Virus record (IMG/VR): IMGVR_UViG_2531839374_000021
Coordinates: 1 to 15,914 of that record
From: a virus
Taxonomy: Duplodnaviria; Heunggongvirae; Uroviricota; Caudoviricetes
Reading direction: 5' to 3' (one strand)
Length of the DNA stretch: 15,914 bases
The translations under genes were made by a program, and so were the position numbers. Below, in pieces: positions 1,169 to 1,938 of the stretch (position 1 is the stretch's first letter; the number at the start of each line of letters is the position of its first letter). Under the pieces are notes generated by a model. It worked only from the letters and a program-made list of their open reading frames with translations. It was not told the DNA's origin and did not search any database.

Positions 1169-1938
1169 GGTAATGCTGCCAACTTACTGATTTAGTGTAT
1201 GATGGTGATTTTAAGGTGCTTGCGTGGCTTCCATTTCCATCAGATGTCCTTCCTGCTCCGCTACTGAAGGCGTGGTGCGTAACGGCAAAAAGCACTGCCG
1301 GACATCAGCGCTATCTCTGCTCTCATTGCCGTAAAACATGGCAACTACAGTTCACTTACACCGCCTCTCAGCCCGGTACGCACCAGAAAATCATTGATAT
1401 GGCCATGAATGGCGTCGGATGTCGCGCCAGTGCACGCAGTTATGGGCGTTGGCCTCAACACGGTTTTACGTCACTTAAAAAACTCAGGCCGCAGTCGGTA
1501 ACCTCGCGCATACAACCGGGCAGTGATGTGATTGTCTGCGCTGAAATGGACGAACAGTGGGGCTACGTCGGTGCTAAATCACGTCAGCGCTGGCTGTTTT
1601 ACGCGTATGACAGGATACGGAGGACGGTTGTGGCGCACGTCTTCGGTGAACGCACTCTGGCCATACTGGAGCGTCTTCTGAGCCTGCTGTCGGCCTTTGA
1701 GGTCGTGGTATGGATGACGGATGGCTGGCCGCTGTATGAATCACGCCTGAAGGGAAAGCTGCACGTTATCAGCAAGCGTTACACTCAGCGCATTGAGCGA
1801 CATAATCTGAATCTGAGACAACATCTGGCAAGGCTGGGACGGAAGTCACTGTCGTTCTCAAAATCGGTGGAGCTGCATGACAAGGTCATCGGGCATTATC
1901 TGAACATAAAACACTATCAGTAAGTTGGAGTCATTACC
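1169..1938 (+). mobile_element. IS1 (iso-IS1 variant), copy 1
   Basis: Ends ggtaatgctgccaacttactgatttagtg (1169-) and aagttggagtcattacc (-1938), about 770 bp, with insA/insB coding content. 9-bp flanks differ (cgaaaaaagc vs tcggatacc), so no target-site duplication. Confidence 0.9.
1195..1923 (+). pseudogene. IS1 insA-insB' region carrying two single-base insertions relative to copy 2
   Basis: Compared with the reverse complement of copy 2: ggcaaaaagcactgcc here vs ggcaaaagcactgcc (extra A near 1289), and cacgcagttatggg here vs cacgcattatggg (extra G near 1437). The native GTG start at 1237 then stops after about 36 codons; the 242-codon ORF starts from a GTG inside the terminal repeat and runs through insA and insB' frames. 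Confidence 0.6.

Follow-up and report, generated by a model that had tools for sequence, protein, structure and literature searches.

The 15,914-nucleotide stretch of DNA catalogued as IMG/VR virus record IMGVR_UViG_2531839374_000021 (here called the window) carries two copies of the insertion sequence (IS) element IS1, and the first of them holds one extra A and one extra G. Together these bases create an open reading frame (ORF) of 242 codons that runs from the insA frame into the insB' frame. Judging from related sequences, both bases are probably consensus errors in the deposited draft. The window matches positions 2-15915 of AMGB01000058.1, a contig of Shigella flexneri 1485-80 (GCA_000296305.1), with 100% identity and occupies the extreme end of this draft contig. 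Copy 1 is 1.2-1.9 kb away from that end, in a part made up of repeats almost throughout.

IS1 and the control of its products InsA and InsAB' by frameshifting have been known for decades, and many IS1 copies are typical of Shigella genomes. In the explanation we favor, copy 1 would be an ordinary IS1 at an old site common to the S. boydii / S. flexneri clade, and the extra bases would have been introduced as consensus errors in a repeat-rich stretch near a contig end. The element in the organism would then probably be an intact 768-bp IS1 with a normal insA gene, an A6C frameshift site and insB'. In the deposited sequence, ribosomes that begin at the native insA GTG would stop after 36 codons, and the 242-codon ORF would have come about by accident, through one +1 shift after another. 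We infer that errors, and not recent mutations, account for the insertions, and that there is no expression of the ORF.

The two IS1 copies and the landmarks of copy 1 are as follows.

1169-1938, plus strand: IS1 copy 1, 770 bp as deposited, that is, 768 bp and two extra bases
1169-1191, plus strand: left inverted repeat (IRL), 23-bp core, located by pattern search
1176-1203, plus strand: promoter-like site in the IRL predicted by consensus scan only, with -35 CTGCCA (1176-1181), a 16-nt spacer and -10 TATGAT (1198-1203)
1195-1923, plus strand: ORF of 242 codons in the ORF listing, whose GTG start codon is IS position 27 and falls within the left inverted repeat
1224-1334, plus strand: truncated insA of 36 amino acids, with the native GTG, 22 native residues that include the first CxxC, and 14 residues out of frame
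1287-1291, plus strand: A-run GGC-AAAAA-GC, with five A in copy 1 and four in copy 2 and all other IS1 copies examined
1439, plus strand: extra G (CGCA[G]TTATG), between A and TT and outside any homopolymer
1477-1483, plus strand: A6C programmed -1 frameshift motif AAAAAAC, intact
1528-1920, plus strand: intact region for the DDE catalytic domain, read in the insB' frame (Pfam DDE_Tnp_IS1)
1916-1938, minus strand: right inverted repeat (IRR), 23-bp core, located by pattern search
10866-11633, minus strand: IS1 copy 2, 768 bp, inserted in yfaL

A MAFFT alignment of copy 1 with the reverse complement of copy 2 spans 770 columns and contains exactly two gaps, which agrees with the two single-base insertions reported in the initial annotation. 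As the sequences are compared directly, chance plays no part in this result. The inserted bases were named correctly there, but the positions given for them (1285-1289 for the A-run and about 1437 for the G) are each 2 nt low. Two substitutions between the copies had not been listed: T in copy 1 for C in copy 2 at 1664 (Ile/Thr), and G for T at 1892 (Gly/Val).

Copy 2 provides a canonical reference. Its insA gene (11303-11578) starts with GTG and encodes 91 amino acids, the A6C motif is present, and the insB' frame (10881-11384) follows in the -1 register. Joined, these frames yield a 232-amino-acid InsAB', which is also the length of the InsAB' gene call in the collection. Copy 2 has a private substitution of its own at window position 10912 (IS position 722) that places Val instead of Gly in InsB' (VIVHYL). 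The equivalent position is G in every relative and in the best-matching E. coli allele, and an exact look-up of the 167-amino-acid InsB of copy 2 returns one contig only, from S. flexneri 1485-80.

The ends of copy 1, GGTAATGCTGCCAACTTACTGAT and GGTAATGACTCCAACTTACTGAT, have 20 of 23 bases in common, and both its length and its terminal repeats are those of IS1. It also carries the A6C motif and, in the -1 register, an insB' frame with a DDE domain. What it lacks is a 91-amino-acid insA with zinc finger and helix-turn-helix (HTH), whereas copy 2 has it in full, as do the copy 1 orthologues. No target-site duplication of 8-9 bp was found at either IS1 copy when the flanks were compared (1160-1168 with 1939-1947 for copy 1, which read GAAAAAAGC and TCGGATACC, and 10857-10865 with 11634-11642 for copy 2). 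The loss of the duplication is ancestral because identical flanks are present in related strains, and it suggests an IS-mediated rearrangement. Inversion between the two inverted IS1 copies was considered as the cause of the missing duplications and rejected, as the four flanks do not match crosswise. Copy 1 is thus a member of the IS1 family by every structural criterion except its disrupted insA and the absent target duplication.

The effects of the two insertions on the reading frames are as the initial annotation described them. Translation from the native insA GTG at 1224, which is preceded by a Shine-Dalgarno sequence (AAGGTG, 1213-1218), leaves its frame at the extra A beyond the first CxxC motif and ends at 1334. 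The extra G, 38 nt upstream of the A6C motif, then shifts the insA frame into that of insB'. Because of the extra A and the extra G together, a single ORF remains open from the GTG in the terminal repeat to 1923. Its residues 1-32 belong to an alternative frame, residues 33-81 (49 codons) to InsA and residues 82-242 to InsB'. Relative to the InsAB' of copy 2, the ORF lacks the first 22 residues, including the first CxxC, and the extra G exchanges 12 InsA residues for 12 others.

These changes leave the catalytic part of the protein whole and remove part of each DNA-binding motif. Pfam DDE_Tnp_IS1 matches ORF residues 112-242 over its entire profile (1-131 of 131, E = 2e-73). HTH_Tnp_IS1 matches over profile positions 1-30 of 46 only, in keeping with the earlier description of a replaced HTH segment. 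Zn_ribbon_InsA matches over positions 21-35 of 35 only and scores 24.8 bits, below its cut-off of 26.1. The NCBIfam IS1 transposase model NF033558 gives the ORF 197.4 bits (cut-off 100) over profile positions 14-199 only, compared to 245 bits over positions 1-199 for the InsAB' of copy 2. The ORF is therefore missing the zinc finger's first half as well as the HTH recognition helix. InsA and InsAB' need both their zinc finger and their HTH to bind specifically to the inverted repeats (PMC12428005), and because both motifs are required, the inactive product proposed in the initial annotation is the right inference. Taken at face value, the deposited copy 1 would encode neither the InsA repressor nor the InsAB' transposase, while its ends are intact.

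Rescue of these frames by recoding was considered and rejected on general grounds, since correcting a +1 insertion in DNA would need a +1 ribosomal shift. The new C-AAA-AAG context favors -1 slippage if anything, and a run of five A is too short for transcriptional slippage.

Neither insertion was recovered from any other IS1 copy examined. A 70-nt query spanning the G has no full-length exact match among 14,309 IS1 places in 5,426 complete E. coli genomes, and a 71-nt query spanning the A5 run has none among 71,669 IS1 places in the same genomes. The best whole-element matches to copy 1 in these genomes are all 768 bp long, with 99.6% identity (two gaps and one mismatch), and this is also true of the best matches in plasmids, including those of Shigella. 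In species-representative genomes, neither insertion-spanning 27-mer was matched, in a scan that did not include the wild-type 27-mer control. The 33 other fetched loci contain 25 IS1 sites, and each of these has A4 and lacks the G. (Loci fetched from related or comparison assemblies are numbered L001-L036.)

Searches with the protein products give a similar picture. The M-initiated 219-amino-acid gene call that contains both insertions occurs on one contig in the whole gene-position index, which is the source contig. The 174-amino-acid product of copy 1 that begins with the ATG at 1399 is EJZ65238.1 of S. flexneri 1485-80, present on one contig of 127,916 bp by exact-sequence look-up. Exact look-ups of the 242-amino-acid ORF, its 174-amino-acid version and an L-initiated 219-amino-acid version found no record.

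When the two bases are removed, copy 1 becomes an ordinary allele. It is then identical at 768/768 positions to an IS1 in S. boydii CP011511 (L011), and it matches the best allele in complete E. coli genomes at 767/768 positions, with T at 1664 as the sole difference. Copy 1 thus has two private 1-bp insertions and no private substitution.

Evidence also comes from IS1 elements at the same site in related strains. A look-up with a lineage-specific 150-amino-acid yfaL fragment was used to gather relatives from complete and draft Shigella genomes, and ten related loci were fetched. Two of these, L033 (CP026811.1) and L030 (AMKG01000040.1), are collinear with window 1122-15914 (14,814 columns, 13 mismatches), and two others, L028 (CP026731.1) and L036 (AFGC01000037.1), align with the window in two pieces. 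All four have an IS1 at the copy 1 site with the same left and right junctions, and all four have A4 and lack the G. In L033 and L028, the IS1 also has T at 1664 and equals copy 1 minus its two bases (768/768). Identical junctions in four assemblies indicate that IS1 was already inserted here before these strains diverged. By the same comparison, the two extra bases arose, or were introduced, only on the branch to the 1485-80 assembly. The branch to L033 has five substitutions per 11.3 kb of unique sequence (~4e-4 per bp).

The same loci differ from 1485-80 in another respect. In four of the ten (L028, L030, L033 and L036), an IS66-family element is located where the collinear match ends at 1122, and strain 1485-80 is without it. 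The element in L030 is about 2.5 kb long (17307-19812) and lies in the tail-fiber-assembly (tfa) fragment just left of IS1 copy 1, with the 8 bp of 1122-1129 on both sides.

Private single-base differences in run length occur at other places in the source contig.

glpQ, contig AMGB01000058.1 (L016 about 2782-2800, about 2 kb past the right end of the window): A5 here, A6 in 15 loci
11859-11864, intergenic between yfaL and nrdA: T6 here, T7 in 14 Shigella loci; TTTTCTT in four E. coli loci
2105-2110, tfa N-terminal fragment: A6 here, A7 in six loci
486-490, IS600 fragment: A5 here, A4 in 5,806 E. coli places and 1,521 plasmid places

The A5 run splits glpQ into pieces of 157 and 214 amino acids, while 15 other E. 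coli/Shigella loci have an intact 358-amino-acid GlpQ; the split reflects a pseudogene private to this contig or else an error in the homopolymer. In the tfa fragment, the A7 frame gives a Tfa-like reading (...QMTKKYDITWLF). The 53-amino-acid product of the A6 version occurs in the source contig only, which is not decisive as tiny contigs may carry no gene call. The extra A at 486-490 is near the end of IS600 orfB and lets ORF 31-849 continue into the neighboring tfa region. The IS600 fragment at 1-554 has one further mismatch that is likewise unshared. A run in the other IS600 fragment (3499-3504) is T6 here and in one S. boydii copy (L012), and T7 in eight other loci.

Private indels in the IS copies of draft assemblies do occur in this set of loci, because the older draft L036 has two private 1-bp deletions in IS911 (equivalent to 2270 and 3366) relative to the window and to L030 and L033, the two relatives that span these sites collinearly, and a draft IS1 copy in L013 carries an N. 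A further run-length difference was noted in an assembly of sequencing run data. L006 (Logan SRR061722) equals window 3793-7897 except for T6 in place of T7 in the yfaA fragment (4186-4192). The T7 run is present in 17 other loci, so that the T6 of L006 looks like a homopolymer error in SRR061722, which might be data from the same strain.

An artifact should be missing from the orthologous position in independent assemblies and should have company in its own assembly. The two bases are absent from all four related assemblies, and the source contig has other private indels, although some of these could be real strain differences. This comparative evidence favors the warning in the initial annotation that homopolymer or other sequencing errors might be responsible. 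The opposite explanation, that both insertions are real and recent mutations in 1485-80 or its immediate lineage, is quite possible but the less probable of the two. Copy 1 would then be a dead, non-autonomous IS1 that has kept both inverted repeats and could be moved only in trans by the transposase of other IS1 copies. Such movement would be inefficient because IS1 transposase acts mainly in cis, a preference stated in the same source as the requirement for zinc finger and HTH (PMC12428005). Several observations speak for real mutations and weigh against consensus error. Both insertions are, after all, present in the deposited sequence. The extra A extends an A4 run, but the extra G sits between A and TT and extends no homopolymer. 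Window 3824-10911 (7,088 bp) is 100% identical, without gaps, to the independent same-lineage assembly L003, and window 3793-7897 (4,105 bp) is identical to the Logan assembly L005. The assembly is thus, by these alignments, accurate where it can be checked, although the checked part has only five runs of at least 6 nt. Moreover, L003, L005 and L006 break at IS ends and so validate only 3793-10911, not the interior of copy 1. The assembler also separated alleles specific to each copy, and the T at 1664 recurs in the L033 and L028 orthologues, which argues for copy-specific read placement and reasonable coverage. The neighborhood consists of nested IS fragments and remnants of prophage in decay, in which the IS600 fragment at 1-554 has other differences unseen in the compared copies. 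Frameshifted IS1 copies are annotated in finished genomes (for example, L015), and Shigella genomes do accumulate real pseudogenes. What tells against real mutations is the pattern of change. Copy 1 would have acquired two indels and zero substitutions relative to orthologues that are otherwise 768/768 identical, and two real indels in 770 bp are unexpected because the substitution rate on this branch is so low. Neither insertion is in any other IS1 copy examined, and the contig has other private homopolymer-length differences, one of them in the otherwise conserved glpQ.

A different proposal is that the 242-codon ORF is an expressed variant, a DDE protein without its DNA-binding module. It might serve as a dominant-negative partner or modulator of IS1 transposase, or as a hard-wired transposase that finds the ends in some other way. 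The DDE domain is complete, the ORF stays open for 242 codons, and the NCBIfam IS1 transposase model matches it at nearly twice the cut-off score (197 bits versus 100). We nevertheless regard this proposal as very improbable. A weak IS1 promoter overlaps the IRL in part, and insB is not translated independently (PMC12428005). TATGAT at 1198-1203 is the sole promoter-like -10 hexamer in the IRL, and because the GTG at 1195 abuts this predicted -10, the consensus scan would place it upstream of the point where the element's own transcript begins. No Shine-Dalgarno or purine-rich sequence precedes the GTG. Given the sequence around it, transcription of this start from the IS1 promoter is therefore unlikely, and so is its translation. 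Ribosomes would instead be captured at the native insA start, which has the AAGGTG, and would terminate after 36 codons. The protein would also be missing the zinc finger and HTH reported as needed for end binding, and its occurrence on one draft contig in all collections searched gives no sign of conservation. The chance is slimmer still that both insertions exist in the strain and that read-through transcription starting in the upstream IS600 fragment expresses the ORF, to yield a DDE-only protein that modulates (for example, poisons) the transposase of the many other IS1 copies in a Shigella genome. Consensus error in an otherwise ordinary IS1 is the explanation that we prefer.

Outside the IS1 copies, the window is arranged as follows.

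1-554: IS600 3' fragment
555-1168, minus strand: truncated tfa gene
1939-2188: tail-fiber / tfa fragment, 250 bp
2189-3437: IS911, complete, without gaps relative to S. boydii copies
3438-3820, minus strand: IS600 5' fragment, abutting IS911
after 3820: truncated yfaA, cut to 131 codons by the IS600 fragment
4351-6978, minus strand: gyrA
after gyrA: ubiG, then yfaL in pieces
12352-14637: nrdA
14784-15914: nrdB

The two IS1 copies are in inverted orientation and bracket 8.9 kb that contain the tail-fiber / tfa fragment, IS911, the IS600 fragment, truncated yfaA, gyrA, ubiG and the remains of yfaL. The yfaL gene (7975-10865) for the AIDA-I-type autotransporter YfaL/EhaC has become a pseudogene. 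IS1 copy 2 interrupts it, and its pieces are 150, 523-532 and 215 amino acids long. It differs from L033 by an 18-bp repeat unit at 8907, and both this difference and the pseudogene state are confirmed by the independent assembly L003. The IS1 junctions at both ends of the bracketed segment are also found in related strains, and these rearrangements are ancestral.

Two further features were noted. The inaA gene (L001 107-757), located past the right end of the window, is split into 74 and 134 amino acids. The cause is a nonsense substitution, as there is no indel relative to E. coli. Because the split recurs in nine of the ten related Shigella loci fetched, inaA is a real, shared pseudogene. 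Within the window, a pair of 68-nt inverted repeats with 90% complementarity is located downstream of ubiG (7886-7953) and downstream of nrdA (14646-14713). These are probably intergenic repeats of the REP/BIME type.

With either origin of its extra bases, copy 1 belongs to a familiar category, IS1 copies that are dead or have been mis-sequenced. The biological weight of the case is small, since one such copy among many changes nothing. It does call for caution in the use of annotations. The 'fused transposase' ORF, which was deposited as the 174-amino-acid 'putative transposase' EJZ65238.1 and appears as a 219-amino-acid gene call in the gene-position index, should not be taken for a natural constitutive IS1 transposase. 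Likewise, the homopolymer-dependent frameshifts of this contig, that of glpQ included, need verification before any of them enters a count of Shigella pseudogenes.

The closest known system is IS1 itself. Copy 1 shares with it the 768-bp body bounded by terminal inverted repeats, the insA frame, the A6C motif and an insB' frame in which the DDE_Tnp_IS1 domain is complete, and near-identical partial proteins are labeled by NCBI as 'IS1-like element IS1X2 family transposase'. Unlike an ordinary IS1, the deposited copy is 770 bp long, has an insA of 36 codons and insA and insB' frames that are joined by two insertions, and lacks a target duplication. An IS1 pseudogene in the finished genome of E. 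coli strain 300081 (L015), annotated as 'IS1 family transposase; frameshifted; internal stop', resembles copy 1 in its intact ends and disrupted coding sequence. Its lesion is a different one, a 1-bp deletion equivalent to window position 1635.

Copy 1 can also be compared with homopolymer consensus errors in high-throughput draft assemblies. Run-length outliers that turn up sporadically, without regard to clade, are a recognized sequencing artifact, and they appear as private 1-bp differences in run length that frameshift genes (PMC4746626). Differences of this kind are found at five places in the source contig. In contrast to such errors, the extra G is outside any run, and the independently verified 7 kb of the contig are clean.

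A further comparison is with IS1 elements whose frames were fused deliberately. An IS1 mutant with an extra A, said to come from Sekine and Ohtsubo, is one example of such a frameshift fusion. In engineered fused mutants, such as the one in which A6C is changed to GA2GA3C, InsA is abolished and transposase is overproduced (PMC12428005). Copy 1 relies on the same principle, as the initial annotation recognized in likening it to a constitutive InsAB' fusion. A +1 insertion is equivalent in frame to the programmed -1 shift, so that one inserted base aligns insA with insB' and no ribosomal -1 shift is needed. The single insA-insB' frame of copy 1 arises in this way through the G at 1439. However, the engineered mutants carry their insertion inside the slippery run, keep the zinc finger and HTH of InsA, use the native start and transpose at strongly elevated levels. 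In copy 1, the joining base is 38 nt upstream of A6C and destroys the HTH recognition helix, and the second insertion separates the ORF from the native start and from the first CxxC. Reading from the insA start codon and its ribosome-binding site goes out of frame after codon 22, and the DNA-binding module is incomplete. Copy 1 is thus not a constitutive InsAB' fusion, because it has neither the intact zinc finger and HTH nor the native start that the engineered elements retain.

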